DNA of 58,992 bases, counting the filler. It is 7 parts of 7 records of this genome, joined end to end, with 100 filler letters (N's around TTAATTAATTAA, not from the genome) between each part and the next. Parts side by side here need not be neighbours in the genome. Positions count along the whole stretch, not along the records: positions 26,966 to 37,665 come from SRR31147125_27252; 6 more parts are not named here. One strand, 5' to 3'. The number at the start of each line of letters is the position of its first letter. Positions within the stretch are counted from its first letter, which is position 1. The position numbers and the translations under genes were made by a program. Below, one piece after another: positions 6,871 to 53,582 of this stretch. The notes below the pieces were generated by a model. The model made no database searches, was not told the origin of the DNA, and saw only the letters and a list, made by a program, of their open reading frames with translations.

Positions 6871-6933
6871 TTTTCTCTTTTTCCTTGAAAACAAATAAGG
6901 ATAAATTTCAAAAAAATCTTTGTTGTATTTAAC

Positions 6934-7504: not shown

Positions 7505-7692
7505 AGTCGTATATTTCATTATTAGCCTAATTTTTCAAAATACAGTAATTTTATTAAACAAGCAAGTAAAAGTTGTTGCAAATGACTATCATAAGTGTTA
7601 ATTTATTCAATATAATAAGTATTGTTAATAGTCAGAACATTTTCATTACAATCGTTCAATTCAAATAAAAATCTTAACATCTTTTCAAATTC

Positions 7693-8069: not shown

Positions 8070-8082
8070 GGAAAAAACGGGT

Positions 8083-8649
8083 ATGAAATCCATCGTAACC
8101 GCCAGTCAAATGGCAGCAATGGACAACTATGCTATCAACCAGATGCATATACCTGGTACGATACTCATGGAGAATGCCGGCATTGGGATTGTTAAATCCG
8201 CATTAACTCTCCTTGACAATCTCCATTCTAAATGTATCCATATTTATTGTGGACCAGGCAACAATGGTGGTGATGGTTATGTTGTTGCGAGACACCTCTT
8301 AAACAAGGGAGCTCTCGTTGAAACTTTTGTCCTCGCAAAACGGAGTAAAATCAAAGGAGACGCGGAAATTAATCTGGCTATCCTGGAAACAATGGGAGGA
8401 CATATCACCTTTATTGATAAAATCCCAAATATGCCAGATAAACATCCGGACCTGATCGTGGATGCCATTTTAGGAACAGGTGTTAAAGGTCCTCTACAAG
8501 GGCTTTTTGCTGACATTGTTACTTTTATCAACTCGTTAAACGTTCCGGTTTTGGCCGTAGATATTCCAACGGGTGTCAATGCGGATACAGGTGTCGTTTA
8601 TGGTCCGGCGATCAAAGCGACAAAAACAACGACGATGGCCTTGATCAAA
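8083..8649 (+). CDS. nnrE: NAD(P)H-hydrate epimerase (YjeF N-terminal domain), truncated by contig end
   Basis: LMENAG, CGPGNNGGDG, VDAILGTG, AVDIPTG. Confidence 0.92.
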
Positions 8650-8749
8650 NNNNNNNNNNNNNNNNNNNNNNNNNNNNNNNNNNNNNNNNNNNNTTAATTA
8701 ATTAANNNNNNNNNNNNNNNNNNNNNNNNNNNNNNNNNNNNNNNNNNNN
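8650..8749. other. Artificial contig-joining linker
   Basis: N44-TTAATTAATTAA-N44, with stops in all six frames. Confidence 0.98.
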
Positions 8750-9956: not shown

Positions 9957-9980
9957 TTCTTAAAATATTTTTTGAATCTG

Positions 9981-11103
9981 TTATAAATCGGTTCTCAGAG
10001 GAACTACCATATTGAGTACGTTCAAATTGCCAGGCTTTTGGTCCGGTTCCAGTAGCTGCAAACAAGTGGGTAGGCACGCCATCTTCAACCAAAACAAAAG
10101 GTCGTTCAAAATGATTGTGTTCAGATGTTGTTCCATCTTCCCAAACTACTTTTTTGCTGTAAGCTTTTAACTTATCAAACAGTTGCCAGTTCACTCCGTC
10201 TTTCGACCAAACATGAATTCCTCCGCCTTCTTCTCCACAAATTTCTCCTGAACGGTCTTTCAGAATCGCCTCATATCTATCTTTGGCCCACCAAATGTAT
10301 GGGTCTTCAACATCAATTCGATTATTATCTTCTGTTTCGAATCTAAATATCGGCTCTTCGCTCAAACGCTCGTATGGCCCTTCCGGTTTTTGAGCTTTTG
10401 AAACGCCCAATAATAATGGGGGAACAAGGCCGGTTGCTGAAGATTTATACATCAATAAAATTTCGCCGGTTTTATCGTTAACTGCCGGCGCCGGATTAGA
10501 AGTAATCGAAGAATCCCAATGACCGGAACGCGGTTCAATTACCGGTTTATCCAATCGTTTCCATGGTCCGTAAACGCTTTTGCTAATCGCCACTCCTACT
10601 CGCTTATTCATCCAGGCTGCATCCCAGTTTTCTTTGCCAACATTAGGATTAGCTGCGTCGGGTTGCGGAAAATCATACGTATTTCCGAAGTAATACAATA
10701 AGTATTCGTCTTTATATTTTACAATACGCGGATTATGGGTGCACATTCCGTCCCAATATTGTTTGCCACGCACCGGTAACACCACATCATGAAATTCGTA
10801 GGGCCCAATTGGAGTATCAGCAACTGCATGAACCACCTGCGAGTTGGTTACCCAATTTCCAAAATTTACTTCTTTCGACCATCTGCTGGCAAACATGTGG
10901 TATCTTCCATCTTCTCCTTTTATTACCGAAGAACCCCAAATCCAATAATCAGGATCAGAAAATCCACCATTTTTGGGTGCAGGTAAAATTCTATCGATAA
11001 AAGCAATGTCGTTTGCTGAAGTTCCACAACTTAAAAAAGAAGGAGCCATGGTTAAACCGGATATTCCGGCGGCAGAAAGCCGAATAAAATTGCGTCGTTG
11101 CAT
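9981..11103 (-). CDS. Tat-exported five-bladed beta-propeller glycoside hydrolase (GH43/GH117-like clan), probable frameshift near 10010
   Basis: RRNFI Tat signal; WIWGSSVIKGEDGRYHMFASRW, HNPRI, SNPAP, EDPYIW, ERPFV. The alternative frame gives a plausible end NMVVPLRTDL-stop that removes the overlap with the sulfatase. Confidence 0.75.
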
Positions 11104-11181
11104 AATTGGTTTAATTTACAGCTGCAAGATAAGAAAAAAGGAAACATGCTGTGCTGTGCTGTCATGTATTTTTACAATGAA

Positions 11182-13431
11182 CTATAAGAAATTAAAAGTC
11201 AGATTAAAATAAAAACTTCTGTCCGGCGAATAGATTGGCCTGGCGTCTGTATTCCTAACCGAACGAGCTAAATGTTCGTAATATGCCACATCGAATAAAT
11301 TGTGCATACCTCCTGTGGCCGAAATTCTTTGTGTTATCAGCCACGAAATTTTAGCATCAACAACACTAAATCCGGGCGTTTCGTTTTCGCCATACGACGT
11401 TGCCACCCTGTCCTGTTTAAAGGATTTACGAAACATTATTTCAGGTACTAACTTATCGTTACAGAAATGTCCGTTTAAAGAATACCGAAATTCTAAAGGC
11501 GGGATTTCAGGAAGTGGCTCTTCCTCATCTTTATTCTCTCCGTAAGTAAATGCTAAACTCAATTCATGATTCAAATTTGCTGTAATCACTTGTTGCCAAT
11601 TTAATTCAAAACCTGCCATTAATGCTTTGTCAACATTCACAAATTGCCGAACTCCCGGAGAACTCGACAATGCTGGCGATATGTCTTCACGAATTTCAGA
11701 TGAAATATAATGGCGTAAGAACGAAGTAAAAACAGTAGCATTAAAGTTTAAGCTTTTGGTTTTGTGCTCAAAAATAAAATCGAACTGATTATTTATTTCC
11801 GGCTCCAGTTCAGGATTTCCCAACATTTCATAAGGATCTAATCCTACCGGAAATTGATTGATATACATTTCGGCAATACCCGGTGCACGGCTTGCCCTGC
11901 CAAACCAAATTCCCAAAGAAGCATTCCCCGCTAACAATTTTGTTCCACCTACACTAAACGAAGGAAGTAAGTGTTCTGACTCCAGATTGTTATAAACTAC
12001 GGCGAAATCAGAATCTGGATTTTTAGCATCGGAACTACTATAATTTAAGCGCCCCGAAAACACAAAGTAAAAAGAAGGCCTATTGTAATGATATTCAGCA
12101 AAAACTCCCATACGTTTTACCAGCGCATCTTGCCATACATTATCATTAAAAACCTTTCCTGCCATCTGCCCCATAAGCATTGTGCGAGTACGGGCACCCG
12201 ACGCTTCTTCATACCGATAATCTAACCCTCCGTAAAGAAAATTTTTATTGAAATCGAATCTTAATTCAGTACGTCCGCCATAATTTGCAGTTTCGGCATC
12301 GGTTTCGGCATCAGTTTTTCGTGGTTCAATTATCTTATCAAAATTGTCCATCAGGTGACTAACGCTTGTTCCATAAACCATCGTATTCCAGCTCGATAAT
12401 GTTTTCCCATAAAAAAGTGCTGAATGATTTGCATTAAACAGCCAGGTATTATCTTCGCGTAAATCCATTGGTAATGCCGGAAAATCAACATCTTTTGCCA
12501 CATTATTCGCAACCATTAATCCCAAGGTTTGATTATCGTTTAGCTTAAAACCAATTTTCCCTCCATAGTTTAGCCGGTTAAAATCGGCGTCAACTTCAAC
12601 TCCTTCTCCATCTGTGTAATTGCTTCCTTCCGAAAGAGAACCAAATAATTTAAAGTCGACCTTTTGCCCCGAAACTCCGGCCACTGCTTCGGTTCTAAAA
12701 ATGTTTCCATTACTTTCGTAACTGGTTCCCAAACGCCCTAACGGAGTAATTTTATCTTTAAAGTCGGGCAAACTGCTTTTAAAATTTATGGTTCCTCCAA
12801 ATGCATTTCCATAACGCAAACTATGCGGCCCCTTCATTATTTCAACTTGCGAAATCATATTAACAGGAATCTGGCTTGCGGCAGGATCCATTCGGTTCGG
12901 ACATGCTGCCGATGCGGTAAGTCCGCCATCAAGAACCAGGTTCAACTGTTCGTATTTAAACCCGCGCAAAACAGGATCGAAACCATAAGCTCCACTTTTC
13001 CGAATACTGGAAATTGAAGGAACTGATTCAAGAAGATTTCCGGCATCGTGCATTAACTTATTATTCAACGAAATATCCAGCCTGTTTTCATCATTAGTTC
13101 CTGAATGTACCTGCATAATGGTAACAGGCTGCAAATTTTTCGATAAAGACTTTAATTCAATAATGCCGTCTTTAAGTAGCCTCTCAAGTTCTTCAGCATT
13201 AAATTTATGATTACCAAATCGTATATGCGATAAAAAAAGAGGCTCTCCTTCAACTACATTAAATTTAATTTTTCCATCCTTATCTGAAAAACCTGTTAGC
13301 TCAGAATATTTATAATTAACATCCTCAATTACCTCTTTGGTATTTTTCTCTCGAATTAGTACTACTTTCTCCTGGCAAAAAACAATCACACTCGAAATCA
13401 TTAGAAGAATCAATAAGCAAATAGTTTTCAT
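11182..13431 (-). CDS. TonB-dependent receptor of the OprC/NosA copper type
   Basis: Plug DPVLRGFK...ACPNRMDP (CxxxM), barrel SHLMDN (HxM), GNPELEPE, NLFDVAYYEHL; signal peptide from ATG 13431. Confidence 0.85.
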   Translation of the reverse strand: MKTICLLILLMISSVIVFCQEKVVLIREKNTKEVIEDVNYKYSELTGFSDKDGKIKFNVVEGEPLFLSHIRFGNHKFNAEELERLLKDGIIELKSLSKNLQPVTIMQVHSGTNDENRLDISLNNKLMHDAGNLLESVPSISSIRKSGAYGFDPVLRGFKYEQLNLVLDGGLTASAACPNRMDPAASQIPVNMISQVEIMKGPHSLRYGNAFGGTINFKSSLPDFKDKITPLGRLGTSYESNGNIFRTEAVAGVSGQKVDFKLFGSLSEGSNYTDGEGVEVDADFNRLNYGGKIGFKLNDNQTLGLMVANNVAKDVDFPALPMDLREDNTWLFNANHSALFYGKTLSSWNTMVYGTSVSHLMDNFDKIIEPRKTDAETDAETANYGGRTELRFDFNKNFLYGGLDYRYEEASGARTRTMLMGQMAGKVFNDNVWQDALVKRMGVFAEYHYNRPSFYFVFSGRLNYSSSDAKNPDSDFAVVYNNLESEHLLPSFSVGGTKLLAGNASLGIWFGRASRAPGIAEMYINQFPVGLDPYEMLGNPELEPEINNQFDFIFEHKTKSLNFNATVFTSFLRHYISSEIREDISPALSSSPGVRQFVNVDKALMAGFELNWQQVITANLNHELSLAFTYGENKDEEEPLPEIPPLEFRYSLNGHFCNDKLVPEIMFRKSFKQDRVATSYGENETPGFSVVDAKISWLITQRISATGGMHNLFDVAYYEHLARSVRNTDARPIYSPDRSFYFNLTFNFL

Positions 13432-13770
13432 CTTAGATTTTACTTTATGTATAACACAACAATATAAATCCATAATATATTCTCGGTTAGTCTTTCGGTT
13501 TTTAAGGAATAAAATTCTAATTAACTGGCGAAATAAAGTTTGTTCCGAGCAAAATGTAATTGTTTTATAAACCTACGAAATATTTCAAAAAGACTGATAT
13601 TTCAATCAGCAAAATTGTAATCAACATAAGAAAATTTGGCATTCCCATTACAATTATTGTTAAATAATACAATTGGCAAAAAATTACACAACATTCTATA
13701 CATCAATCGATTAAAATTATTATTTTAGCACCAAGTAACTATATTACAAACCATTAAATCATATATTATC

Positions 13771-14133
13771 ATGGAACATAAAATGTGGTATGATGAGAAG
13801 GATGAAATTATCCATCTCGAATTTGTTAGTGATTTTCTAACATCAGACGTTGAACCAATTCGAAAGAAACTCATTGAAATGAAAGAGGGTTTACGTTACC
13901 GACAAATGTTAATTCAAATTAGCAAAACCAACAAAGTAGAAAATCGAGAAACCAGAGAACTATCTAACCAGGCAATGTACGATGCACAAATTACCGATGT
14001 TGCATTTATTGGTGGTAGTGCGGCAAACCGAATGATTGCTAAAGTATTACTAAAAACAGGTGCCTTAAAAACCAAGGGCAATTTTTTTAAAACTGTTGAA
14101 GAAGGAATTAAATGGTTAAAAAGCAGAAGATAA
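13771..14133 (+). CDS. SpoIIAA-like (STAS/SEC14-type) small protein
   Basis: 120 aa; VAFIGGS..RMIAKVLL and the C-terminal FFKTVEEGIKWL are typical of the SpoIIAA-like family; first gene of the rsb operon. Confidence 0.7.
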   Translation: MEHKMWYDEKDEIIHLEFVSDFLTSDVEPIRKKLIEMKEGLRYRQMLIQISKTNKVENRETRELSNQAMYDAQITDVAFIGGSAANRMIAKVLLKTGALKTKGNFFKTVEEGIKWLKSRR

Positions 14134-14138
14134 TAATT

Positions 14139-14825
14139 ATGGAACAAATAACTTTTGAAAACGCGCAAGACCGCATTGAACAAATAGAAGATGTCCTTTC
14201 ATCTGTTGCCGCAGGAGAACTAGATACCAGAATTAAAGTAGATATTGAAGATGATTTAACCGGAGTTGAAGAAGCCATTAATATTTTAATTGATGATTTA
14301 ACCTACGAGCTTAAGCAAAGCAAAAAAATGCGTGAAGAGCTGGAAAACAAGCTCTCGAAAATTGAAGAACAACAAAATACAATTGTACGCCAGCAGGAAG
14401 ATTTACTAGAACTATCGAGCCCGGTTACAAAAGTGTGGGATAACATTCTTATCCTTCCGGTAATAGGTACTCTCGATAGCCAACGTACACAAATTATGAT
14501 GGAGAACCTGTTGGAAAAAATTGTAGAAACAGGTTGTACTATTTCAATTTTAGATATTACCGGCGTACCAACTGTTGACACACAAGTTGCAAACCACTTA
14601 CTAAAAACAGTAACTTCAGCACGTTTACTGGGTGCCGACTGTATAATTTCAGGTATCAGCCCTGCAATTGCCCAAACCATTGTACACCTTGGAATTGACC
14701 TTTCTGCAATAAGAACAAAGGCGACTCTTCAAGATGCAATGATTTATGCCATGAGAAAAAACAATCAGCTTGTAGAAGGCAAAATTAAATTGGAATCATC
14801 AGAAACCGAAGAAAGCGAATTGTAG
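14139..14825 (+). CDS. rsbR: Stressosome RsbR-type STAS protein with N-terminal HAMP-like/coiled-coil region
   Basis: ELSSPV..VWDNILILPVIGTLDSQR, LDITGVPTVDTQVANHL, GISPAIAQTIVHLGIDL. Confidence 0.9.
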   Translation: MEQITFENAQDRIEQIEDVLSSVAAGELDTRIKVDIEDDLTGVEEAINILIDDLTYELKQSKKMREELENKLSKIEEQQNTIVRQQEDLLELSSPVTKVWDNILILPVIGTLDSQRTQIMMENLLEKIVETGCTISILDITGVPTVDTQVANHLLKTVTSARLLGADCIISGISPAIAQTIVHLGIDLSAIRTKATLQDAMIYAMRKNNQLVEGKIKLESSETEESEL

Positions 14826-15211
14826 ATGAATTTAGATTTACACGAAAAAGAATACCCATAATAAAAATCCGCGACTTCCTGATTGTTTCCATTCAGGTTG
14901 ATATGCACGATAAGCTAGCCATTCAATTACAATCTCAAATTCTGAATGAGATTGAAAGAACCGGGGCAAAAGGTGTACTAATAGACATCTCTGTTTTGGA
15001 AATGGTTGACTCGTTTATCGGACGTATGCTTTCGGGAATGGCATCGATGGCTTCTATTATGGACGCTGCCGTGGTGATTGTGGGAATGCAGCCGGCTGTT
15101 GCAATTACACTGGTTGAACTGGGCCTTGAAATGCCAGGAGTTAGCACTGCCCTGAATATGGAAAAGGGTATTGAAATGCTTGAAGAAAGGCTGGATAATC
15201 TTGAACTCTAA
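14826..15211 (+). CDS. rsbS: Stressosome RsbS antagonist, frameshift at A5 14845-14849
   Basis: Reconstructed RIPIIKIRDFLIVSIQVDMHD; VLIDISVLEMVDSFIGR (phospho-Ser motif); GMQPAVAITLVELGL. Confidence 0.92.
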
Positions 15212-15223
15212 ATATAGTTGCCC

Positions 15224-15649
15224 ATGAACGAAATTAATTTCGACAATAACTGGGAGCAACTTGGTAAACATCCGATTAAAACCGAACACGATATTGTTAA
15301 GGTGAGGCAGTTGGTGCGCCATTATGCCAAAAAAGAACGGATGGGAATTGTAGAGCAAACCCGCATTACTACCGCCGTTTCTGAATTATTCCGAAACATG
15401 TTCAATTATGCAGGCGGAGGAGAAGTAATGATTGAAAAAGGTAATATTGAAGGGAAGAACGCCTTAATTGTCACTTGTATTGACGAAGGTCCTGGAATTG
15501 AAGATCTTGAATTAGCCATGAGCGATGGTTATACTTCAGGTCAGGGAATGGGATACGGTTTACCCGGAACTAAACGATTGGTCGACCGGTTTGAAATTCA
15601 ATCGGAAAAAGGAAAAGGAACAATTGTAAGAGTAATGAAATGGAAGTAA
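15224..15649 (+). CDS. rsbT: RsbT serine/threonine kinase
   Basis: DIVKVRQ, TAVSELFRNM, DEGPGI, DGYTSGQGMGYGLPGTKRLVD. Confidence 0.92.
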   Translation: MNEINFDNNWEQLGKHPIKTEHDIVKVRQLVRHYAKKERMGIVEQTRITTAVSELFRNMFNYAGGGEVMIEKGNIEGKNALIVTCIDEGPGIEDLELAMSDGYTSGQGMGYGLPGTKRLVDRFEIQSEKGKGTIVRVMKWK

Positions 15650-16701
15650 CACGCAACCAAATACTAACATTACTAATTGAAGGAGAACAAGACATTGGAG
15701 TTTGCCGGAGAAAATCGGTTAGCCTTGCAAAAAATTTGGGCTTTGATGATGTTAAAACCGGAGAAATAGCAATAATGGTTACCGAACTGGTAACCAACGT
15801 CTTGAAACACGGTGGAAGCAATGGTAAAATTTTGGTTTGCGAGGTAAAATCCCACGATGGTCAAAAAGCCATAGAAATATGGTGTTGCGATAAGGGAGAA
15901 GGTATTTCTAATTTGAACAAAGCAATAAAAGATGGCTATTCCGACAAAGTATCGTTAGGTATTGGTCTCGGCTCTATAAGGCGTTTTTCTGATATTTTTG
16001 AGATTAATCCTGATGAACTTCGAAAACTAGAAGAGAGTGGCTTTTCGGGTCTTGATATTTATCCACATTGTATTAGGACTCTAAAATGGGTACCTTCAAA
16101 AAAATGGTTGGGAACAAACCGGAAACTTGCCATTGGAGCTTCGTCGCGGAGCAAACCAGGCGAAACATTAAATGGTGACTGTTATGTTATTACACATGTT
16201 AATTCATCGAAAACAGTTGCTGCAGTAATCGATGGTTTGGGGCATGGAAAAGAGGCACATATTGCATCGCAAATGGCACGCGAACAAATTATTGCCAAAG
16301 CCGAACAACCAATCGATAATTTGCTGAAACATGTTAACGCTGCCTTGCGAGGAACAAGAGGTGCTGTAGCAGGTTTAGTGCTAATCGACACCGACTCGAA
16401 AAAAATACTGTTTAGTGGAATAGGAAATATTGAAGGTTTTATTTGCCAATCAAAGGAAAAGAAAAATTTACTCTCGTTTGGCGGAATAATTGGCCACAAT
16501 ATGCGAACACCCAGAGTTTTCGAATTTCCGTTTAATCCCGGAGATTTTGTTTGTATGTATTCAGATGGAGTTATGTCGAGATGGCGATTTGAAGACTTCA
16601 ACTGGAATGAGCATCCGCAAACCAATGCTGAATATTTAATTTCTAATTACTCCAGAAACAATGATGACGCTACCGTTCTTATCGTCCGCCACGATTCATA
16701 G
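15640..16701 (+). CDS. rsbX: RsbT-like GHKL domain fused to an RsbX/SpoIIE PP2C phosphatase
   Basis: N-terminal [27 protein letters not shown]-terminal NGDC, IDGLGHG, GIGNI, SDG, DDATVL. Confidence 0.85.
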
Positions 16702-21175: not shown

Positions 21176-21275
21176 NNNNNNNNNNNNNNNNNNNNNNNNN
21201 NNNNNNNNNNNNNNNNNNNTTAATTAATTAANNNNNNNNNNNNNNNNNNNNNNNNNNNNNNNNNNNNNNNNNNNN
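21176..21275. other. Artificial contig-joining linker
   Basis: N44-TTAATTAATTAA-N44. Confidence 0.98.
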
Positions 21276-26865: not shown

Positions 26866-26965
26866 NNNNNNNNNNNNNNNNNNNNNNNNNNNNNNNNNNN
26901 NNNNNNNNNTTAATTAATTAANNNNNNNNNNNNNNNNNNNNNNNNNNNNNNNNNNNNNNNNNNNN
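26866..26965. other. Artificial contig-joining linker
   Basis: N44-TTAATTAATTAA-N44. Confidence 0.98.
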
Positions 26966-29900
26966 TTTTTTTGCCATTCAATACCCTTTTCCCACAAACT
27001 TCCGTTTACAGCACTCTCCAGAATGCGTTGAGAAAGTAAATCACTGCTCTGCTCATCCCCTTTTTTCATGGCCATATAATAGGCTTGCTCATAAAATCGA
27101 ATTGCATCCTGCCATTCTCCGAGATCATAAGCACTGTGACCTCTTCGAACTTTTCCCTCAAATCCCTCAACAGCATATTGGCGAGACTCTTTTTCGGTCA
27201 TTCCACCAAACCCGAATAATTGTAATCCAACCCAAAGCGCCGGAGATTCACCGTTTTTAAACATCTCCCGTTGCGTTTCAGAAAAGGCAATAGCCGCAGG
27301 CATAGAGCGTTTTTTTTCATAGAAAAGAGAGTAAAATGTCGAATGATCCTCATTGCCAGTGTATTGTAAGGGAAGCAATACGGTTGAAGCACCGGCATAG
27401 AGGAATGCCCGTTCTAAGGTAATAAACAACTCCATGCTTGACGTCGGTGGTACGGCTTCTTTAAAATCGATAGAAACCAAATTGGCGGGAATGGTAATCT
27501 GGTAAAGTTCTGTGGGTCTGAAAATAGCCATTGCTGAACGAAAAACATGATATCCTATTTGCGATAATGCCGGATCATTTGTATTCCAAAGGCCCTGTCC
27601 ACTCAAATGAACAAGATCGGACATGCCTAATGCGGACGCTTGTACAGAAAAACTGTTATCACGACTTCCGGAAACAGGCGAAATGATATTATAACCGGTC
27701 GTTGCTAATGAGCTCGCCAGATCTTTGTTCTCAGCAAGATAAACGTTGGTTCCCTGTAATTTACGATTTTGAAAACCGTAATAATAACCGGTCAAACTGG
27801 TACTGACAACACAGGAGGTTTTGTTTTCCGTAATACCAGCAACCTGTAACATGGCAGACCAGGGTATAGTGAAAAGTTCACCATCAGGAATGATAACGAG
27901 ATTTTTAATATTTATTTTAAGGCTATCCAATGATGGTAACAATGTTCGTGCGATTTCTACAGTCTCTACCTGATTGGAATATAATGACTTTAATAATTTT
28001 TCTTTTTCCTGAATAAAATCCTGTTTTGATAATGGCAAAATGTGTAAATCCAGATTAGTGGTAGTCAGAGTCCACAAAAGTAAAGTCATCTGACATAAAA
28101 TAGTATAAAATTGCCTCATTATTACGCAGATTTTTTTGCACATCCTGTTGATGCACCGTTGTCACCTGAACCAACGCTTCAAGCTCCGGGACTTCTTGTT
28201 TGATATTATTCAAAATTTCGTCATATTCGGCCTGGTAGGTTTTTAGCTCTTTTCGCCATGTAGCAATTTGACGTGCCGGTATACTAATTTCATACTTTGA
28301 TCTTAAAAGATTAATCTCCAGTTCATTTATTCTATCTCGGACAAATTTTGCATTATTATAAAACAGCTTGTGTCTTTGTTTACGTAATTCAATAGGCTGA
28401 TGGCTCATCAAGTCGTAAAATAATTTAGAGCGCAGTCTTTCAGCAAACGCCAGGCTGCCGTTTTTATCTCCTTTTGCGATAAATACCTTACGATTTCCCG
28501 GTACGGTGCCAGATGCGCCAATCGTATTTGAGCTGAGGTTGCATCCGATTTCTCAGAGGGATGCGCTTCCAATACCTGGATGCTCTCCAAAAAATACTCC
28601 AGGGCATCACGTTGTACAAGTAAATCTCTTTTTGTTTCGCTATCAAGCCCGGCAACTAAATGACCCAAATCATTATTAACCCGCCAAAGAATATCATAAT
28701 ATCCATATCTTAGAGAAATCCGGCGCGATTCCGTAAAGGCATTAAATGCTCTTGCTAAATCCTGTATGGCGAGCCCTAAGGTCCCTTCGATATAATAAGC
28801 CGAGCATAATTCTAAATTCAGTTTTTCCCGTTTGCCTATAAATATCGCCTCTACTAATAAACTTTCAGCCAGCGAGGCTTTTTCCAGAGTGCGTATAGAT
28901 GCAAATACATCACTCTGAACACTCTCCGGAGATTTATTGTCCGTATTGATAATATTCAGTTCCGCCAGCCGTAATAACAGACGACAATAATCCTGATCCA
29001 TATTCAGATCTTTAATGACGGTCAAAGCTCGATTTACCTTTTCCGCGGCAACAGGTAAATATTGCAGGAGAATTCTGTTTAATTCTTCCCGGTCCGGACG
29101 TACCTCCTGAATCTCGGTCTGACTCAAATTAATAACGATCTGGGACAAGCTGAATGTATTTTTCAATAGTCCGGAATAAATTTTCTTTTCTTCGCAAATG
29201 TCCAGAGAGGCATTATAGTTATTCCAGGCAGAAACAAAATCGCCCTTTAGATAATAGAGATAACCGATGTTATTTAAAAAAGCGGCAACAGCCTGATCAT
29301 CCTTTCTTTTTCTGAAAATCTCTAATTTCTGTTCAAAAAATTGAACGGCTTTGTCATAGTCTTTTTCTTCTTTGAAACTTTTCCCCAAAATCGTATAAAC
29401 AAATGCCCACTCATCATCTGTCGTAAATCCCGTAGCTGAAGCTGAACCCATTGTTTCGAGGCTAAAAAACGGAAGTGGAAAATAAAGTCCGAGAAATCCG
29501 ATTTTTATTCTGTTGGCACCTTGCTTATAACCCTGGGCCTTTCCGCTTTCAAGTAACTCGAGAGCGCGCTGAGAATATAACACAGCGTCTTTGGGTTCAC
29601 CCAGCAGATAATAATTATACGCAATGCTGCGGTAGCTTCGCATGAGATCAGAATCATAATTATTTTTCTTCTCAATGCTCGCTGTTTTTTGATAAAGATC
29701 AATCGCTTCGTGGTTTTGATCACCCATCTCATACAGCAGCGCCAATCTTTTCGTATTGATAAGTATCATGGACTCATTTTCTAATTCCTGATTAAGCTTT
29801 ATGGCGTGCTGCAGGTACGCCGGACCACGCTCGAGGTCCTTAACGACCAGCGCACAATGGCCTATCCGGCTGTAAATGAGTGCCTCGCGCTCCTTATCGA

Positions 29901-32760
29901 CAAAAGAAGAGTCATACTTTAGTTTCACTTGAAAATACTCAAAAGCCTTCTCATAACCAAATTCACCCAGGTTATAATAGTTGTTAGCTAAATTAAGTGC
30001 CAGGCTAGCTTCAAGGCCAGGGTCCTCTTCTGCATCATTTAGACCAATCGCCTTGGTTAACTCGTGAATGGCCCGTTCATAATATCTGGGCGGCTTGGAC
30101 TTTTTATGAAAGGTAACTGTGTGATAAATCCAGACAAGAGGAGCTGTAACCGTTTCCACGGCTTTTCTGTAAAATTTCTTGGGTTTGGCTCGTTGCCGGG
30201 CTTGATAATTTTCCATCATTTCATAATTATAGCTGATCGTCAGGTAGGCCTGAATCAGTGTATAATCATAGGAAAGAGCCAGAGCAATAAGATTGCTGGA
30301 TCTCATTAATGATTCCGGATCCAAACCATCCGGATCACCATACAGATCTGCTTTTTCAGTCCCCTTGTATGAATACGCCAATCCAAGTGCGTATATAATA
30401 ATATTATCCTTTGAATTCAGTTGAAAGAGTTGTTCATACTCTATTATAACCTGATCCGTTTTCTGCAGAAAATACATACACTCTATATAGCCTCGATGCG
30501 CGGCAACACTCCTCTGATCCATTTTCTTGGCTTTAATGTACCACGATACTGCGAGAGCAAAATCACCATTCCGTTTTAGTTCGTCGCCAGTGCCAAGCAA
30601 CGAATTTAATAGTTCAATATGCGCTATATCCGCCAAATCAGGACGAATATCGCGATATTGTGCCTCTAATTTTTCAAGTAGATTAAATGCCCGCAGGTTT
30701 TCTCCTAACTTGAGTAAAGTACGGGTTTGGCTCATCTGAGAAGTAAAAACCTCATCAACAAGATTCGGATATAATTTTTCAACTAACTCAAACTCCTCAA
30801 GTGCCGCATCATTGTCACCAGCCTTGAATAATATATCGCCAATTTCTAATTGGGCTGCAGCTGCTAACAGCGAGAATCCTGAATATTGACCTGCAATCTC
30901 TCTGTATCGCTTTAATAAACCGGATTCAGACGTTATTCCTTCGGTTAATAATGCAAGTATGCGGTTACGCGCCGGGATCATCCACTGGCGTTGTTCAGGA
31001 TAATTTTTTACTACCTCGAGATATGCATTTACAACTTCATCTTTAGTTGCAAATTCTTTAAAAACGTCGCCAATTTTCAACTGACTTTCCGCACATATGT
31101 CTCGTTCTTGTGGAAAATTTTTAAGTACCTTGCTATATTCCGTAAAAGCCCGGGTATATTCTCTCTTTCTATACAACAGATCTCCAATGGATATTTGCCC
31201 TGCCGCACCAGGTTCCGACTGATCCTGATAGAGATTAACAATGTTGGTCAGCCCATTGATGAGATATCCATATTTTTCTTCACCTTTCTTTTTCCTTGAT
31301 CTCATGCCAAGAAAAGCCATCTCTGCATAAGCACGCACAGTTCTGTTATCCGGATAATTATCCAGCAACATCTCATAATAGATTTTTGCCTGGTCTTCAT
31401 ATCCAAGCAATTGGAAACAAACTGCCATCTCATATAAAGATTCAGATAATCTGGATGATTGCGGGCCGTAAAAGTCCATAATTCTGTGAAATGCCAGTGC
31501 CCGATCCCATGCTACTTTTCTTTCACTCTCTTTGATTTTTGCAGGATCCCAATCCAGAAACAACGGACCAAGTGTTTGGCGGCTCATATTATCAGGCAAA
31601 GGGTAGGCGCTATTCGCCAAATGAAACTGCTCATCCACATTTTCCCTTTTGGGAATATGACCCTGCCCGTCAAAACTCCAGATATCAAGATTACCACCAC
31701 GATCCGAGGTGAAATAGATTCGATCATCTGCACCCTGCCAGGGCTGCATGGCATTCTCCGCTCCGGCTGTCATTGGCATGGCATAACGGACCATCCTCAA
31801 ATTAAAAGATAAATTCAATCGATCCTGTATTGGATCTCCTTTTATTACATCAGGTCCAGGACTCTCATTTACATCAGCAGCCCACACCATTCCCTCATCT
31901 GCCGGAGAAATAATATGATCCTTATTTGTATCAAAAGCATAACGCAGAAAAAGGAGTCTTTTCGCATCCAAAGACCAGCTGGGGAACCCATCTATATTTG
32001 AACCTGTTGTAACACGCCACATGTGAGGCTCTCGTGGATCCCAGAAACGTAAATCCATCTCATCAGAGGGTTTTGGGCCTTTGAGATTTATCATCCAAAT
32101 ATCACCATTGTTCTCTTCCTCTGCTCTAAATGAGGTAAAGGCAATAAAGCGTAAATCAGGGCTCCAGCAGGGGTGTGTTCCTCCCAGAAAAGTCAATTGT
32201 GTTGTGTTACCGGTATTATCATTGTGAAACCATATTTCGTCTCTGCCAGTGCGATCCGATACCCACGCTACTTTTTTAGCATCAGGTGATACCGTTGGAT
32301 AACCGTCATATCCGGTGTATTTTGTAAATTGTTCCGGATCCCCCTTGGGATACAAACGTCCTTTCTGCTCATAAAGTTTTATTTTCCATATATCGCCAGC
32401 CGCATCACTTCTTTGCGAAACAAAAGCGAGCGTCCTGTTATTGGGGAACCATGCGGGGTAAAAATCATCGGATTTATGAAAGGTTATCTGCTGTGATCGC
32501 CCACCTGATGTGCTTCGTATCCAGATATCATAATTACCTGCCTGCCTTGTTATATAGGCCATCCATTTACCATCTGGCGATATGCGTGGACTCAAATCAA
32601 TATCCGGATGTGTCGTAACCTGCCGATAATCGAGCGACTTTTTGGCTGCAACCTGATCTTCTGTTTGAGCCATGGCACCATTTCCTGTAAAATCAGGAAA
32701 CACACTATAACAAAATAGCATTAACAGGGAAAAGAAATATGTGGTATAAGTTTTGAGCAT
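26966..32760 (-). CDS. Giant exported protein (>1900 aa): PD40/TolB-like propeller, TPR array, degenerate CHAT domain, further TPRs; 3' truncated; frameshifts near 28470 and 28080
   Basis: Signal peptide; repeats PRISPDGKWMAY, PAWFPNNRTLAF, PTVSPDAKKVAW, PCWSPDLRFIAF, FTSDRGGNLDIW; many TPRs; reconstructed AERLRSKLFYDLM linker; LVIIPDGELFTIPW, AFLYAGASTVL, WVGLQLFG. Confidence 0.85.
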
Positions 32761-32819
32761 ATTTTAAATAGTAAAGTTTATGGTAAATAGATTTTCAACT
32801 GTTTACAGGTAATATAAGC

Positions 32820-33374
32820 CTATTTTTCCTTCCACGTTCCATCATCTTGCTGAATCATTGTACCAGGTTCGGAATTATCATAATTCAATTTTGCAAATAT
32901 TTCATAGACCTTGTCACCCGCTTCAGAGGCTGACGAATTTACAGCTATGACTCTTTCATATATGATAAGCCGATCATCATTCTCGACCTGAACTAATTCA
33001 TCCACAAGTCGCCGATAATTTTCTTCCTCCTCATACCGGCTTGTTGGCAAAATTTGTAAAAAACCCTTCAAATCTTCACCAATGGCTTTGTCCTTTTTTA
33101 ATTCGTCTATTTCATCCTTGTTAAACTTGCGGTTCCTGACCGCTTCAAGAACCCTTCGTTTGTGGTCAGACATGGTCGAGGAATGAGTCCCGCCAATCGC
33201 CCGGGTTGAAGCGATGACCCACGTTTCACTTTCAATTTGCTCAAAAGTGCCCAAAACCTGGTTTTGTAATGCTGTCTTTTCACCCGTAACATTTATCTCA
33301 GGAGCCTGTATACTACACTGTAATAAAATTACCCCCATAAAAAAGAATAGATAACACATTTTTTTTATATACAT
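32820..33374 (-). CDS. YdbL/DUF1318-family lipoprotein
   Basis: Lipobox-like LLQC; AIGEDLKGFL, VENDDRLIIY, PGTMIQQDDGTWKEK. Confidence 0.8.
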   Translation of the reverse strand: MYIKKMCYLFFFMGVILLQCSIQAPEINVTGEKTALQNQVLGTFEQIESETWVIASTRAIGGTHSSTMSDHKRRVLEAVRNRKFNKDEIDELKKDKAIGEDLKGFLQILPTSRYEEEENYRRLVDELVQVENDDRLIIYERVIAVNSSASEAGDKVYEIFAKLNYDNSEPGTMIQQDDGTWKEK

Positions 33375-33484
33375 ATGGCCTCCGATTGAATTGGGCTATT
33401 ATTTCTGTATTAAATTTAAAAAACGCTCAGCTACTGACGATGGAATTCACCTGAATATATTTTTTCGTATGACTTTGAATTCCA

Positions 33485-36400
33485 TCACTTTAGAGCTGAT
33501 TGCACAAAAAACATAATCGGTATACGTGCGAGTTCCACACGTCCGCCACTCAATTTTGCCGGAAAATACCAGGGCTGAGTAAGTTCTATGGACGGATAAA
33601 AATAACCGTGTCGAACCTCCATAATCACTAATTGGGGCTTAAAACCCCAGTTAATTAATGTTTTCGTATAACCAATACCTGTGTCAGGTTGTCTCTCTTC
33701 AACAGAACTTAACAAGTTATAAAGCACTTTTGAGCCAACATCCGTCACATAAAAGTAACCACGCATATCCAGACCTTGTTCCGGATCAAGCCCTCTACCA
33801 AACAATCGGACATTCGCATTAATAATACCTGCCTTTTCTTCTCCGGAAGCCTTTGGCAATAGCAAAGCGGAATTCACATTGGATAAATGCCCTGTAATAT
33901 TATAGGTTGCGTTCACCAGTTCGCCCTGCGCCAAATCAACTGAAATCCGCCCTCCTAAATTACCTCCATACATGGTGCCTATAAAGGATGGAACCTCGAA
34001 TCGGCCGCCGCCAATAAATAATTCAAAATTCAAATTTTCAAGGACATAGTCCATAACATCAATATTTTCTATTGATACACGGGAAATATTAGGCAACGTA
34101 TTCAGATAATAATCCCGATACGTCATATAGTCTACTGAAGCTTCAGAGGGTGTGATGATTTTTGATAGCGAATCTCCTAACAAGACACTATTAACCACAT
34201 CATATTTCTGATTCAGTTTTATATCCGCATTTATCCCACTAACTTTAATATTATCTTGCATCAGAAAGGTCAGCTCATTCGTTTTTGCCTCCAGATATAA
34301 ATCAGCCAATAATGTGTCAACATTTACATCCAGATTCAGTTTTGATTGACCCACAAGTAACATATCTCTGGTTAATTCCAGTGTATCAGTCGCATCCTGA
34401 TAAAGTTCGACTTTGGACTGGAACTTTGGATTAACCAGTAAACTCTCGGCAACGGCCGTAAAAAATCCGGCAGCATAAAGATCAGGCAGGTGTATTCTGC
34501 CACCCTCCAGGTGGACAGATTGAAAATCTTTAGATAAAAGGCGTATAGTAAATTCATTATTAAAAAACACAGATCCTTCACTTATATCCGTTCGAATACT
34601 ATCCACTTCCAAAGATATATCCGCGACAGCGCCGCTATCCGAATCCAGATGCGCCTTTGTTGAAAAATTTAATCCATCTACTGAAATATATTTTGAAGGA
34701 TAAGTAATACTCGTTTGGTCAGTAAATAATTCTGCATCGACATCATAAAAGAGGCTGTCCGGTGATATTCGTCCCTTAAGATGAGCTGTTAGATTCGTAG
34801 AGCCGGTAATACCAAAATCCAGCAACTGCTCCTGGATTCTTTCAGGCATCCATTTTCGCAATGAATGGTGCTTCAGTTTTAACGCGGACAGGTCAAAAGC
34901 GATTTCTTCCGTTCCTCTTTGACGGATAGATGCAGATGCCTTTCCGCTGACCAAATCATTTAGCCCTATGACTATGGACGAAATGTTCACATTTTGAAAC
35001 AGGGAATCCGTACTGGCCAAAAGTGAACTTTTAAAATGGATTGGAGGCAGGGTTTCGTCCCGCTCCAGGATCGTAAAAAGCAGGGAATCGGTATTTACGG
35101 AAAAATGCGTATATATCGAGTCAAGTCCGCTTAATCCAAAATCAAGTTTAAAATTGGCTGTGGTACTGAGGGGTGAATCAGGGAATTGCTCTGAGCCAAG
35201 ACCTTTAAACTCAATTGTGCCATTGGCGCTGAGATCTTCAAAACGGGAATTACTGGAGGCGTCTATATTACCCTCTAACAAGGAACCCAAAATATTTTTC
35301 ACTCTAAAGGAACATGAGGCTATTTCAGGGATAAACCGATCATTCAAAACAAAATGTGTTAAAAAGGTGCTGCCCCCGGAATAAAACGAAATACTATCCG
35401 GCAATAAAAAACTGAGTGAATCATATTTTGCCCGCATTGTCGACTCTAATGAAGACAGTTTGTTGCCATTCACTTTTATATTGGTTGAAACAGACAAGCC
35501 TGAATTCAGTAATTCAACATCGCCATGGTTATAGGTAACGCCAAAATCCATTAACTGTAACAGTCCATTTAATTCAAACTTGCTGTCCTGGAAATTTTCC
35601 GCAATTTTACCCTGAAAAGAAGACTCTGTCAGGGTTAGAGCCGATTCATCATCGTGCAGAAAAACAGGAGCTTGCAAGGAATCGGGTAATAGTGCTTCAG
35701 CTAATTCAAGGATCTGAGATATTGGAATGATGCTTTTTTTAACATTTAATTTTACAGCTGGATTTGTCAAAAAATCATCAAAAGCCCCATCCATTTGAAT
35801 CCAGGGGTGTTCCCCTACATTTAAAAGAATACGATCAATTTTACCTTTTTGGTTTTCCAGATTTGCTTCACTATCCACATCGATTGATAAGGGAAAAGGA
35901 AATTGTATAGGAAAAAACCGGGGATTAATTGAGGAGTACATTTCCAGATCTTTTATAACCATACCCAGGTGGATCAACAGATCACCAGGCTTATTTAAAG
36001 CGAGTTCTGACTGAACATCCAGATGTCCTGAAACCGATAAACTGTCCTGCATCTGTCCCTGATTAGCTTTTAGCGCATAAAAAATAGTGCTGTTATCACA
36101 CTGCAAAGATATTTCACCATGAATTGGCGATTTTTTGACATCAATTTTACCTTTTGGTAGCTGCAAATCAGTCAAGTGAAATGTCAAATTATCCATTGAA
36201 ATGGATTGAAACGTCAAGGAATCCTCAAGATCAATATGAAATTGTGCGTCTGTCAGACTAAAATCCGCAAGATCAATCGTTAATGGAAGTGTACCCAAAC
36301 TATCAAGTGTCATTGTAATGGGTACAGGTTCGTCTTCAACAATGGAATCAGATGCTATTTTCCTGAGAGACAAATCTATATCAAGAGAATCAATAAGTAT

Positions 36401-36799
36401 AGCCTGTATCTGGATTTCTTTCTTAAATATTTTACTCAGCTTATATTTTACAAAAGCTTTCTTGATAAAGGCGGAGCGTAGAGGAAAATCGTCATCCACA
36501 AAAGTGGAATCTGTGGGGAGAGAAACCCGAATAGTGCTTAACTCAAAACCACGAAACGGGTTAAAATGAACATCCTTAACGTCCACTTGTCTATTTATTT
36601 CGGCAGCAACCTTCTGAACCAAAAACTCTTTTATCCGTTCTGGTGGTAGAAAGAGCCGGATTGCTAATATCGTAATCAGAAAAAGCACTAAAGATCCAAC
36701 AGTTCCGATCACAAACAGCCGCAATAACTTTTGCTTTAGATTTCTTTTCTTCCGGCGGGGTCGTGTTACACCGGTCTCATCAGGACTTGTCTTACTCAT
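33485..36799 (-). CDS. AsmA-like (repeating beta-groove) envelope bridge protein, 1104 aa
   Basis: Basic N-terminus and a single TM helix, then LPPERIKEFLVQKVAAEINRQVDVKDVHFNPFRGFEL (AsmA N-terminus); beta-rich body; C-terminal MYGGNLGGRISVDL. Confidence 0.8.
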   Translation of the reverse strand: MSKTSPDETGVTRPRRKKRNLKQKLLRLFVIGTVGSLVLFLITILAIRLFLPPERIKEFLVQKVAAEINRQVDVKDVHFNPFRGFELSTIRVSLPTDSTFVDDDFPLRSAFIKKAFVKYKLSKIFKKEIQIQAILIDSLDIDLSLRKIASDSIVEDEPVPITMTLDSLGTLPLTIDLADFSLTDAQFHIDLEDSLTFQSISMDNLTFHLTDLQLPKGKIDVKKSPIHGEISLQCDNSTIFYALKANQGQMQDSLSVSGHLDVQSELALNKPGDLLIHLGMVIKDLEMYSSINPRFFPIQFPFPLSIDVDSEANLENQKGKIDRILLNVGEHPWIQMDGAFDDFLTNPAVKLNVKKSIIPISQILELAEALLPDSLQAPVFLHDDESALTLTESSFQGKIAENFQDSKFELNGLLQLMDFGVTYNHGDVELLNSGLSVSTNIKVNGNKLSSLESTMRAKYDSLSFLLPDSISFYSGGSTFLTHFVLNDRFIPEIASCSFRVKNILGSLLEGNIDASSNSRFEDLSANGTIEFKGLGSEQFPDSPLSTTANFKLDFGLSGLDSIYTHFSVNTDSLLFTILERDETLPPIHFKSSLLASTDSLFQNVNISSIVIGLNDLVSGKASASIRQRGTEEIAFDLSALKLKHHSLRKWMPERIQEQLLDFGITGSTNLTAHLKGRISPDSLFYDVDAELFTDQTSITYPSKYISVDGLNFSTKAHLDSDSGAVADISLEVDSIRTDISEGSVFFNNEFTIRLLSKDFQSVHLEGGRIHLPDLYAAGFFTAVAESLLVNPKFQSKVELYQDATDTLELTRDMLLVGQSKLNLDVNVDTLLADLYLEAKTNELTFLMQDNIKVSGINADIKLNQKYDVVNSVLLGDSLSKIITPSEASVDYMTYRDYYLNTLPNISRVSIENIDVMDYVLENLNFELFIGGGRFEVPSFIGTMYGGNLGGRISVDLAQGELVNATYNITGHLSNVNSALLLPKASGEEKAGIINANVRLFGRGLDPEQGLDMRGYFYVTDVGSKVLYNLLSSVEERQPDTGIGYTKTLINWGFKPQLVIMEVRHGYFYPSIELTQPWYFPAKLSGGRVELARIPIMFFVQSALK

Positions 36800-37665
36800 T
36801 CAAGTAATAAATCTTCCTTGTATGAAAAATTATCATGAATTCGGGATTTAAGCGTTTGTTCTTCGTTTGCATATAAAGGACTAATTTCAATTCTGTTTTT
36901 AACATTCCCGGAAACATCCCGTTCAATAGATACACCCGCACCCTCCAGCCATCGCGCGAATTGTTCCATTAAATCCGTACGAGCGGTTTCAGGTGAATCT
37001 ACGCCATCCGCATTTTTAATCGGACTAAAATCATCCCTTCGGTCTGTCTCCACTACCGCAACCTTTTTTGCATACGGAAATATATCAAATATAAATTGCT
37101 CAAATTTATATCCATTCGGTTCATCAGGTACTATTTGATGTCCGTTTTGGTCTATTTTTGTTATCTTTTTATGCGCAATATGATATGGTAAATCTTTTTT
37201 GTCTAAAAGTATTCTTTCAAAAAAAGAACGGCTAAAAACATGAATGGCTATACTTCCTTGCCCAAATTTAAGCAGAGAATCCGACGTCCGCGCATTTTTT
37301 CTTCCTCTGACAGCTCTGTGTATTCAATAGTTGCCACTTTGCCATCAATCAAACCAATATTACCGAGTTTTTCCTCAGGATAAAGCTTGTAAACTGTCTT
37401 GGCAGACATTTCAGATTCGCAACCAATATGATAGCCAATAAAAGCAGGATCACATATATTCGCCAAAACATTATCGACCTGAAAATAATATAACCAGTCA
37501 ATCCCTTTTTCAGCCATATCCTCAACAAGACCATTCACATAAAGTGCTTTTATTAAACCACCATGACCATCTGGCGCCAGGCTTAGATGAGCTTTATCTT
37601 CCAAAATCAGGCGACCATCTTCATCCAAAGTCGGTAACATACCCTGGCTAAAAAAGGTAAAAGAC
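36796..37665 (-). CDS. UDP-N-acetylglucosamine pyrophosphorylase (UDPGP type 1/UAP family), 5' truncated, frameshift at 37295-37300
   Basis: QGMLP, APDGHGG, FQVDNVL, IEYTEL, GSIAIH, LPYHIAHKK, PNGYKFEQFIFD, FSPIKNADGVDSPETAR. Confidence 0.92.
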
Positions 37666-37765
37666 NNNNNNNNNNNNNNNNNNNNNNNNNNNNNNNNNNN
37701 NNNNNNNNNTTAATTAATTAANNNNNNNNNNNNNNNNNNNNNNNNNNNNNNNNNNNNNNNNNNNN
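37666..37765. other. Artificial contig-joining linker
   Basis: N44-TTAATTAATTAA-N44. Confidence 0.98.
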
Positions 37766-39126
37766 GGATCATCCTTTGGAGAATAGGCCATACCATGATA
37801 AACGATATGATTCACACCGGACAGGAACAATTGATCAATTTCCGGTTTTGCCTGGGATAATGATACCCTGAAATGATCCGCTAGCCAGGTACAGGTTTCC
37901 GAGGCAACCAGATTTTTGCCACTTACATGAGCTGCCGAAGAAGAAAACCTGAGCACCAAAGGATCGATGATATCCTCATTAATAAAGCCAGGTTCACGCC
38001 TCAGTCCCGGAATATCAAATTCCGTGGAACCAAAAATTTCAATCTCCGGGATATCTGCTGCTGCATAAGTATCCAGGATATTGGTCGGTGATCCGTGTGC
38101 CTGATTACGTAATAAAGCGCCTTTTTCATGGGACCATTCGGCAGTCCTTTGAATAAATTCCTCATGCAATTCAGCAAGCGTTAGTCGATAATCTGCCTTT
38201 AATCGGGCTGTGATGTCCTTATCTCCCTCTCCGAGGAATTCGGGCATTTTTTCCAGTAAATCGTAACCTCTTCTTTTCATAAACTCTTTTAAAAAATTTC
38301 TCGTCCATTCAGCGCCATAATATTCATAAGAGTCGTGATAAAATGAACGGACCATATTGCCTTTGTAATTCTTAAAGGCTTTATCGAAATGGTTGAGATA
38401 AGCATCCAAAGCTTCAATCGAGAATGGATCCACAACAAGACCTTCTGCTCCGGGAGCGGCACGTTTCACTTTTTGCATTTCACTTTCAAGAAACAGAATG
38501 TAGACGTTCCAGGTGCCTGAAGGGGCTTGCCAGTTTAACTCGCCTTTTGAATTTATTTGAGAGGTAATATTTAATCGTTTTTCTTTTTTGGATACGGCAG
38601 TGGCAGCTATTATTTCCCGTTTCCGGTTACTTTTTCGCCCCCTTCTTTCAAATAATTTTTCAGAGGCTTTAAACAGGTCCTTTTTAACCTTTCCTTTGAC
38701 ATTTAATGTTAAGACAACAAGCCTTGAGGAGGATTGTTCTGCTGTCACACTGGGGCCGCCATAAGGCCAGCCTGTACCGATGGTCATATCCACGTCCATG
38801 CCCAATCTCTGGCATTCTTTTTTGGTAAAGGCAAGCATGTCCATCCATTCGGGAGTGAGGTAATTAAGAAAATTTTCTTCCTCACCTTTTACACCATATA
38901 TTGGAATAATGTGGACACCACCCATGCCGCCCCTTTGATATGTCTCCAGATTGTAGGTTAAATTCTCTTTATCAACAGCACTACCGAGCCACCACCAATA
39001 GGTCCAGGGTTTTGTTTGTGCGGTTATTTTGGGCCAGTCAAAGGGTTTGAGTGTATCGCTTTGGCAACTCCACATGAGTGAAAGTAAACCCAGTAAAAAA
39101 AGAATTTTTGCCTTTTTCAGAATCAC
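37766..39126 (-). CDS. Glycoside hydrolase family 106 (alpha-L-rhamnosidase-like), 3' truncated
   Basis: KPWTYWWWLGSAVD, GMGGVHIIPIYG, GTGWPYGGP, VKRAAPG, DSYE, RNQAHGSP, SSAAHVSGK; AAGGAGG RBS. Confidence 0.88.
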
Positions 39127-48227: not shown

Positions 48228-48327
48228 NNNNNNNNNNNNNNNNNNNNNNNNNNNNNNNNNNNNNNNNNNNNTTAATTAATTAANNNNNNNNNNNNNNNNN
48301 NNNNNNNNNNNNNNNNNNNNNNNNNNN
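48228..48327. other. Artificial contig-joining linker
   Basis: N44-TTAATTAATTAA-N44. Confidence 0.98.
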
Positions 48328-53482: not shown

Positions 53483-53582
53483 NNNNNNNNNNNNNNNNNN
53501 NNNNNNNNNNNNNNNNNNNNNNNNNNTTAATTAATTAANNNNNNNNNNNNNNNNNNNNNNNNNNNNNNNNNNNNNNNNNNNN
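53483..53582. other. Artificial contig-joining linker
   Basis: N44-TTAATTAATTAA-N44. Confidence 0.98.

Follow-up and report, generated by a model that had tools for sequence, protein, structure and literature searches.

Earlier work describes YdbH, YnbE and YdbL of Escherichia coli as an intermembrane bridge (PMC11126948; bioRxiv 10.64898/2026.03.16.712125). As given in the main text of the second report, YdbH has 879 amino acids (aa) and measures about 180 A, and YnbE is made up of a lipidated cysteine, a strand (I30-I38) by which the groove of YdbH is extended and a helix (K45-T56) that is held by YdbL (bioRxiv 10.64898/2026.03.16.712125); the same report states that the YnbE strand is disordered in prediction without YdbH, that E60, R61 and N72 of YdbL contact the C-terminal helix of YnbE, and that free YdbL is degraded by DegP in vitro. 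Here we analysed a stretch of DNA of 58,992 nucleotides (nt), filler included (the window), and in it a locus of three genes on a 10.7-kb contig (26966-37665). Gene 1 (33485-36799, minus strand) codes for an AsmA-like protein of 1104 aa (Pfam AsmA), gene 2 (32820-33374, minus strand) for a DUF1318 lipoprotein of 184 aa (PF07027), and gene 3 for a giant protein with PD40, TPR and CHAT domains (Pfam), which is spread over three reading frames (28408-32760, 28055-28489 and 26966-28143, minus strand). The order along the minus strand is the 3' part of a UDPGP-like gene, followed by the AsmA-like, the lipoprotein and the giant gene. A sequence-only reading of the window had recognised three co-oriented, closely spaced genes here, and indeed all of them lie on the minus strand, with gaps of 110 nt (33375-33484, minus strand) between the AsmA-like and lipoprotein genes and of 59 nt between the lipoprotein and giant genes; no terminator-like site was found on the coding strand in either gap.

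Like the E. coli system, the locus places a gene for an inner-membrane AsmA-like groove protein beside a YdbL-type (DUF1318) gene and has a probable outer-membrane lipoprotein in the set, and this lipoprotein keeps the fold of YdbL and the residues that contact the YnbE helix. Unlike the E. coli system, the locus has no ynbE, its YdbL domain bears a lipid of its own together with an extension of 65 residues that shows no detectable relation to YnbE, its AsmA-like protein is longer (1104 against 879 aa) and not detectably YdbH, and a third, giant gene is added. The absence of a separate ynbE, noted earlier from the letters alone, was borne out, as PF13617 (Lipoprotein_19) scored over its cut-off in none of five reference genomes (KSB1 and Caldithrix metagenome-assembled genomes) and the 110-nt gap is too short for a gene of ynbE size. 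We propose, with moderate confidence, that the three genes are a conserved envelope module of the KSB1/Calditrichota lineage, in which the lipoprotein would be the outer-membrane end of a bridge and the giant protein its scaffold or protease. The co-inheritance of the three genes suggests that lipids reach the outer membrane here through a variant of the supply machinery that has not been described.

The three genes are co-inherited in the KSB1/Calditrichota lineage, in at least three different arrangements. Among the five reference genomes, all three genes are adjacent in four and the lipoprotein and giant genes are adjacent in all five. Of 151 evenly sampled genomes of the phylum, 108 have the long-form lipoprotein, 111 the middle region of the giant and 108 the C-terminus of the AsmA-like protein, as a single copy; at least one of the three genes was present in 113 genomes, all three in 103 and none in 38. 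The three-gene order that had been seen in one window thus recurs across the lineage. Relative to the lipoprotein gene (108 genomes), the giant gene is directly downstream in 86, on another contig in 21 (some of these clearly by fragmentation) and absent in one, while the AsmA-like gene (104 genomes) is directly upstream in 67, upstream on the same strand at a distance of 0.45-4.5 kb in nine and elsewhere in 28. In the nine genomes with spaced genes, a HAD-like gene and a 501-aa gene are inserted. In seven genomes the AsmA-like gene lies downstream of the giant, and the six of them with a lipoprotein match have the lipoprotein on another contig (two checked); the order in the two checked genomes is giant, FecR-domain protein, AsmA-like protein and ParA-like ATPase. 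A set of 85 reference and metagenome loci, not de-duplicated, gave a similar survey at the level of single loci: the giant gene begins no more than 1.5 kb downstream of the lipoprotein gene in 43 of the 62 loci that have 600 nt or more of DNA on that side, and at a distance of 2-4.6 kb in three more, and an AsmA-like gene whose end is no more than 1 kb upstream was found by tblastn in 27 of 67 loci, which is an undercount because loci L086, L047 and L071 have divergent AsmA-like open reading frames (ORFs). Pairs of the three genes remain neighbours despite different rearrangements, an argument that the genes share a function.

Several loci show further genes beside the three. A HAD-like phosphatase gene (277-282 aa) and at least one more gene stand between the AsmA-like and lipoprotein genes in L094 (4606-6910), L095 (4310-6614) and L096 (1326-5441). 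In one clade the giant gene is followed by the gene of an exported FecR-domain protein of 264-267 aa, the AsmA-like gene and a ParA/MinD-like ATPase gene in L090 (genome G078, 1622-15518) and L091 (genome G033, 1502-16089), and the FecR-domain and ParA-like genes may code for further components. G078 also contains L092 (3959-7224, minus strand), where the gene directly downstream of a long-form DUF1318 lipoprotein gene is a second AsmA-family gene, of 857 aa.

The AsmA-like protein matches PF05170 (AsmA) over residues 35-145 with 44.5 bits against a cut-off of 29.8, and DUF748 with 38.7 bits, under the cut-off of 50 (Pfam). Among its 19 orthologues, Pfam found DUF748 in 19, AsmA in 17 and YhdP PF13116 in five; a DUF490 or AsmA_2 C-terminal domain was not found by Pfam in the protein or in the 19 orthologues. 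An AlphaFold2 model built from the 19-sequence alignment (mean predicted local distance difference test, pLDDT, 82.7) has a basic N-terminus, a membrane helix at residues 22-50 and then about 60 long beta-strands. When the model was compared with the PDB by Foldseek, the bridge-like protein LPD-3/BLTP1 (probability 0.99, E 1e-6) and an N-terminal fragment of Vps13 (probability 1.00) were the only high-probability matches, and all others reached a probability of 0.47 or less; the template modelling (TM) scores of the matches were low, as expected for long flexible rods. The model thus shows a protein predicted to be anchored in the inner membrane and to have the repeating-beta-groove fold of bridge-like lipid-transfer proteins, and the beta-groove proposed earlier for the 1104-aa protein was upheld; given this model and the LPD-3 and Vps13 matches, a fold other than a groove is not what was found. 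Its best-conserved part is the C-terminal region of about residues 930-1104, which is lineage-specific in the ortholog alignment. The TamB-TamA, TamB-TamL and YhdP systems likewise have an AsmA-type domain with a membrane anchor at the N-terminus, and a groove about as long; as differences from this group, the locus has no Omp85 partner and the conserved C-terminus is lineage-specific.

The lipoprotein consists of a signal peptide and lipobox (residues 1-20, ending LLQC; 33315-33374, minus strand; from alignments), the N-terminal extension of the mature protein (residues 21-86; 33117-33314, minus strand; from alignments and model) and a YdbL-like DUF1318 domain (residues 87-184 and the stop codon; 32820-33116, minus strand; from PF07027, hhalign and Foldseek). 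Its DUF1318/YdbL assignment in the sequence-only reading proved sound in both sequence and fold. PF07027 matches residues 87-184 with 40.5 bits against a cut-off of 27 (Pfam), hhalign against E. coli YdbL gives 89.5%, and a profile of 31 relatives, in all of which the lipobox residue Cys20 is invariant (31/31), matches the crystal structure of E. coli YdbL (PDB 28oj) with E 3.9e-4. Superposed on 28oj, the model of the lipoprotein (pLDDT 85.7) reaches a Foldseek probability of 1.00 and a TM-score of 0.80 at a root-mean-square deviation of 2.5 A. Moreover, D134, R135 and N146 align by hhalign with YdbL E60, R61 and N72, and R135, E131 and N132 do not vary even in relatives with 23-37% identity. 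As judged from these alignments, the C-terminal half is evidently a domain of the YdbL type and retains the residues that hold the YnbE helix in E. coli YdbL, and a position at the outer membrane is probable for the protein. In the extension, residues 22-29 (SIQAPEIN) alternate between hydrophobic and polar and are disordered in the monomer model; the model then has a helix at 29-60 that carries a near-invariant KT.LE.Q..G motif, a loop, and a helix at 70-84. The N-terminal cysteine, the short alternating stretch and the motif-bearing helix are all conserved across the aligned relatives. A mean-field direct coupling analysis for contacts of the N-terminal helix with the YdbL pocket, on 192 long-form lipoproteins (effective number of sequences, Meff, 168) placed its top pairs in the indel-rich columns 61-72, 112-117 and 147-154.

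The long-form lipoprotein is not special to the three-gene locus and belongs to a large, widespread family. Its profile, run against 1.84 billion representatives, found 1488 proteins with E values of 1e-3 or below, 476 of them with 1e-10 or below, and most of the best 150 matches span positions of about 5-185; in addition, the ESM Atlas holds DUF1318 clusters of similar length in Spirochaetota and Myxococcota. Loci L078-L083 carry distant long-form DUF1318 lipoproteins of about 35% identity with the N-terminal motif CTVKIPDI.ITGEKT, whose genes follow a gene of 252-254 aa with a dapB-like N-terminus by eye.

The giant protein combines a PD40 region (about residues 46-228 in the window) with YbgF/CpoB-like and other TPRs (about 440-666 and 1113-1220), and its intact orthologues have 2613-2863 aa; in L001 and L005 they run from PD40 repeats through TPRs, a first CHAT region and about eight TPR_12 units to a full C-terminal CHAT domain. 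The domains named earlier for an exported protein of more than 1900 aa were therefore all there, and the length was that of a truncated copy: the orthologues go on with a second TPR array and a second CHAT domain. As judged by eye, all orthologues start with a hydrophobic signal-like segment, with a lipobox-like cysteine in some, and these N-termini mark the giant as a predicted exported protein. A lipobox-like cysteine (IACS, LSCS) was seen at the N-terminus of the giants of L024 (8577-17090), L035 (824-9325) and L049 (2112-10577), which belong to a clade without an adjacent AsmA-like gene, and in this clade the giant may itself be a lipoprotein.

The match to CHAT (PF12770) is 52.7 bits in the window against a cut-off of 24, and 228.9 bits over two stretches in the intact L001 protein; a phmmer search of the window's CHAT region against the PDB gave no CHAT match. 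To compare catalytic residues, the first CHAT regions were aligned to a profile from the C-terminal CHAT domains, with the duplicate L013 dropped and L086 unalignable. The first domain has the catalytic histidine in 1/24 orthologues and the cysteine in 0/24, and in the window's copy the two positions are Q and K. In the C-terminal domain, the histidine is present in 23/24 and the cysteine in 23/24, and this domain can be aligned to the CHG and ACE motifs present in solved chains of TPR-CHAT/Csx29. The sole one of the 24 whose C-terminal CHAT lacks both residues is L062 (10522-18810). The term pseudo-caspase, used in the sequence-only reading, hence fits the first, dead CHAT domain that lies in the window, but not the C-terminal CHAT domain past the contig end, which in the orthologues is predicted to be an apparently active caspase-like domain. 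A dead protease-like domain before an active one is an arrangement of the separase type.

Two known systems bear a likeness to this giant. With Tol-Pal it has in common the N-terminal PD40 repeats and YbgF-like TPRs and a gene adjoining that of a probable outer-membrane lipoprotein; however, it is 6-7 times longer, the locus has no TolQRA or Pal gene, and the NCBIfam scores are far under the equivalog cut-offs (TolB TIGR02800, 108.4 against 343.15 bits; CpoB/YbgF TIGR02795, 69.7 against 90.1), so what it shares with TolB and CpoB/YbgF appears from these scores to be repeat types only. The TPR-CHAT proteases (Csx29, type III-E CRISPR) likewise have TPR arrays followed by a CHAT domain with CHG and ACE motifs, whereas the giant is predicted to be exported and not cytoplasmic, has no CRISPR context, carries a fused PD40 propeller and is about 4 times longer. 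A reading of the CHAT protein as a defence system was set aside, since PADLOC gives a generic TPR only and the protein carries an export signal.

How the module might work can be outlined from the E. coli precedent. The lipoprotein would form the outer-membrane end of the AsmA-like bridge, its lipid-anchored N-terminal stretch extending the groove at its open C-terminal edge in the way YnbE extends YdbH, and its conserved helix would sit in its own YdbL pocket, so that one polypeptide would do the work of both YnbE and YdbL. Because the groove protein is longer than YdbH (1104 against 879 aa), it may work without a stack of YnbE-like strands. The giant would serve as a scaffold in the periplasm, and its caspase-like protease would supervise or remodel the bridge or the lipoprotein, which is the weakest step; the degradation of free YdbL by DegP in vitro, as reported in bioRxiv 10.64898/2026.03.16.712125, makes proteolytic control of a YdbL-type protein plausible. 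In a wider and doubtful form of the same idea, one long-form DUF1318 lipoprotein with YnbE and YdbL functions would cap AsmA-like bridges outside Proteobacteria, and the bridge of the KSB1/Calditrichota lineage would have gained a PD40-TPR-CHAT subunit of about 2800 aa which cleaves or licenses the lipoprotein or the bridge.

The suggestion that the lipoprotein's extension is a YnbE-like module fused to YdbL is a reasonable but unproven functional analogy. Its layout (lipidated cysteine, short strand-like stretch, helix) is compatible with that of YnbE, and the disorder of residues 22-29 in the monomer model resembles the behaviour of the YnbE strand without YdbH, which we count in favour of the module; so the layout stood, but the relation in sequence did not. 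Several observations weigh against our reading. PF13617 had no match at E up to 10 in the N-terminal extensions of four lipoproteins, nor did any Pfam family match the extension of the lipoprotein at E up to 10; compared with E. coli YnbE by hhalign, the lipoprotein reaches 8.9%, and the alignment spans the signal peptide and lipobox only; a word-based, insensitive search found no stand-alone short homologue of residues 15-90; and the strand-like stretch is only about 8 residues long, right beside the lipid anchor. The kinship with YdbH that the earlier comparison implied for the AsmA-like protein was not detectable by sequence either: in tests that are weak because the targets were single E. 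coli sequences, hhalign gave the AsmA-like alignment a probability of 1% against YdbH, 2.6% against YhdP and 13% against TamB, and no YdbH-type Pfam family was among the matches of the 19 orthologues. As for the genomes, no AsmA-like or giant gene is near the lipoproteins of L078-L083, so the long form also exists outside the three-gene module; a clade with L005, L024, L033, L041 and L050 has the lipoprotein and the giant with the AsmA-like gene elsewhere; and the lipoprotein is linked more tightly to the giant (86/108) than to the AsmA-like gene (67/104). The 151 genomes are counted regardless of kinship, co-occurrence within one phylum may result from few gains or losses, and two of the genomes (G091 and G145) are unpublished.

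This tighter linkage makes a lipoprotein-giant pair the main rival explanation. The two proteins would be the working unit, with the lipoprotein tethering, chaperoning or restraining an exported protease at the outer membrane, in a pairing much like that of Pal and the TolB propeller, and the AsmA-like gene would be a frequent but separate neighbour. That Calditrichia-type loci keep the pair without an adjacent AsmA-like gene speaks for it as well as the adjacency counts do, and so do the TolB-like PD40 repeats and YbgF/CpoB-like TPRs with which the giant begins, and a conserved helix-binding YdbL pocket that could hold a helix of the giant. Nevertheless, a single-copy AsmA-like gene with the lineage C-terminus is present in 104 of the 108 lipoprotein genomes (all three in 103 of 113), and in the seven genomes with the AsmA-like gene next to the giant it is the lipoprotein that is on another contig, in the six with a match; a displaced lipoprotein adjoins another AsmA-family gene in one genome, and E. 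coli YdbL is known to act in an AsmA-like system (bioRxiv 10.64898/2026.03.16.712125). We therefore keep the pair as a tentative possibility. A gene order merely inherited within one phylum, with no common function of the three genes, would agree with evidence that is all genomic and counts genomes regardless of kinship, and with the unrelated HAD-like phosphatase and 501-aa genes inserted between the AsmA-like and lipoprotein genes in some genomes. It is improbable in view of the close match of presence and absence (103/113 with all three; 38/151 with none), the pairs that stay adjacent through at least three different rearrangements, the short gaps without terminator-like sites and the E. 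coli precedent of an operon with an AsmA-like gene and a YdbL gene.

A last alternative, that the giant gene is a decaying pseudogene and the module defunct in this organism, starts from the two frameshifts in the window's copy. Aligned with the intact L001 orthologue (2814 aa), this copy covers residues 26-1420, 1415-1549 and 1599-1924 at 55%, 48% and 47% identity. Frame 1 (28471-32760, minus strand; L001 residues 26-1420) holds the signal-peptide-like N-terminus, PD40 and TPRs, frame 2 (28085-28489, minus strand; L001 residues 1415-1549) the start of the first CHAT region, and frame 3 (26966-28093, minus strand), which ends at orthologue residue 1924, the degenerate CHAT and the first TPR of the second array. 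Frameshift 1 lies where the frames overlap (28471-28489, minus strand), most likely as a 1-nt indel in an A-run at about 28473-28476; the window reads RYLSQK and then, in the next frame, GDKNGSLAF, where L001 has KYLVDKGDYNGALAF. Frameshift 2 (28075-28085, minus strand) is a 1-nt indel at or beside a T-run at about 28078-28083 in GACTTTACTTTTGTGG. None of the three frames has an internal stop, which together with the 47-55% identity to the intact orthologue over residues 26-1924 speaks against decay. Since both are 1-nt homopolymer indels and a third frameshift falls in the neighbouring UDPGP-like gene, three in 10.7 kb of a fragmented assembly, the two frameshifts are probably sequencing errors rather than signs of gene decay, and the pseudogene is very improbable. 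Position 26966 is the contig end, so the giant gene is cut off at about residue 1924 of the orthologous 2814; the missing C-terminal part of about 890 residues was not found elsewhere in the window.

Both the AsmA-like protein and the YdbL domain belong to established kinds. What appears to be undescribed in the literature searched, as far as its available text goes, is a long-form YdbL that is lipidated and has no detectable YnbE beside it and, most of all, the PD40-TPR-CHAT giant that is inherited along with it, in agreement with the earlier remark that the combination was not known as a described system. A YnbE-YdbL fusion is not mentioned in the main text of PMC11126948 or bioRxiv 10.64898/2026.03.16.712125, and in the literature search DUF1318 was named only in an unrelated context, no relevant account of a periplasmic TPR/CHAT caspase-like protein at the outer membrane was found, and nothing relevant to the CHAT/TolB/AsmA combination was among the matches listed. 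The case matters in that, across a whole phylum, the AsmA-like bridge goes together with a YdbL-type protein that is lipidated, and YnbE is not detectable. Further, the widespread long-form lipoprotein gives a testable idea of how bridges may be capped at the outer membrane outside Proteobacteria, and the predicted exported giant with its apparently active caspase-like domain is a candidate for regulation or quality control, with no counterpart reported for such systems. If the giant does cleave or license the lipoprotein or the bridge, lipid transport between the membranes would be under proteolytic control, something that the literature searched does not describe for any AsmA-like system.

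The window itself is a chain of seven contigs joined by six linkers of the form N44-TTAATTAATTAA-N44 (8650-8749, 21176-21275, 26866-26965, 37666-37765, 48228-48327 and 53483-53582, without strand). As the linkers are contig joins, gene neighbourhoods across them are not real; the DNA to the left of the linker at 26866-26965 belongs to another contig and gives no genomic context for the locus. ORFs that start or end inside linkers, such as 8694-9956 and 37714-39126, are artefacts at a linker end. Upstream of the AsmA-like gene lies the UDPGP-like gene (UTP-glucose-1-phosphate uridylyltransferase family; 36841-37664, minus strand), which is cut by the contig end and changes frame near 37299-37311; this frameshift is the contig's third. 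A UDPGP-like gene also precedes the AsmA-like gene in locus L001.

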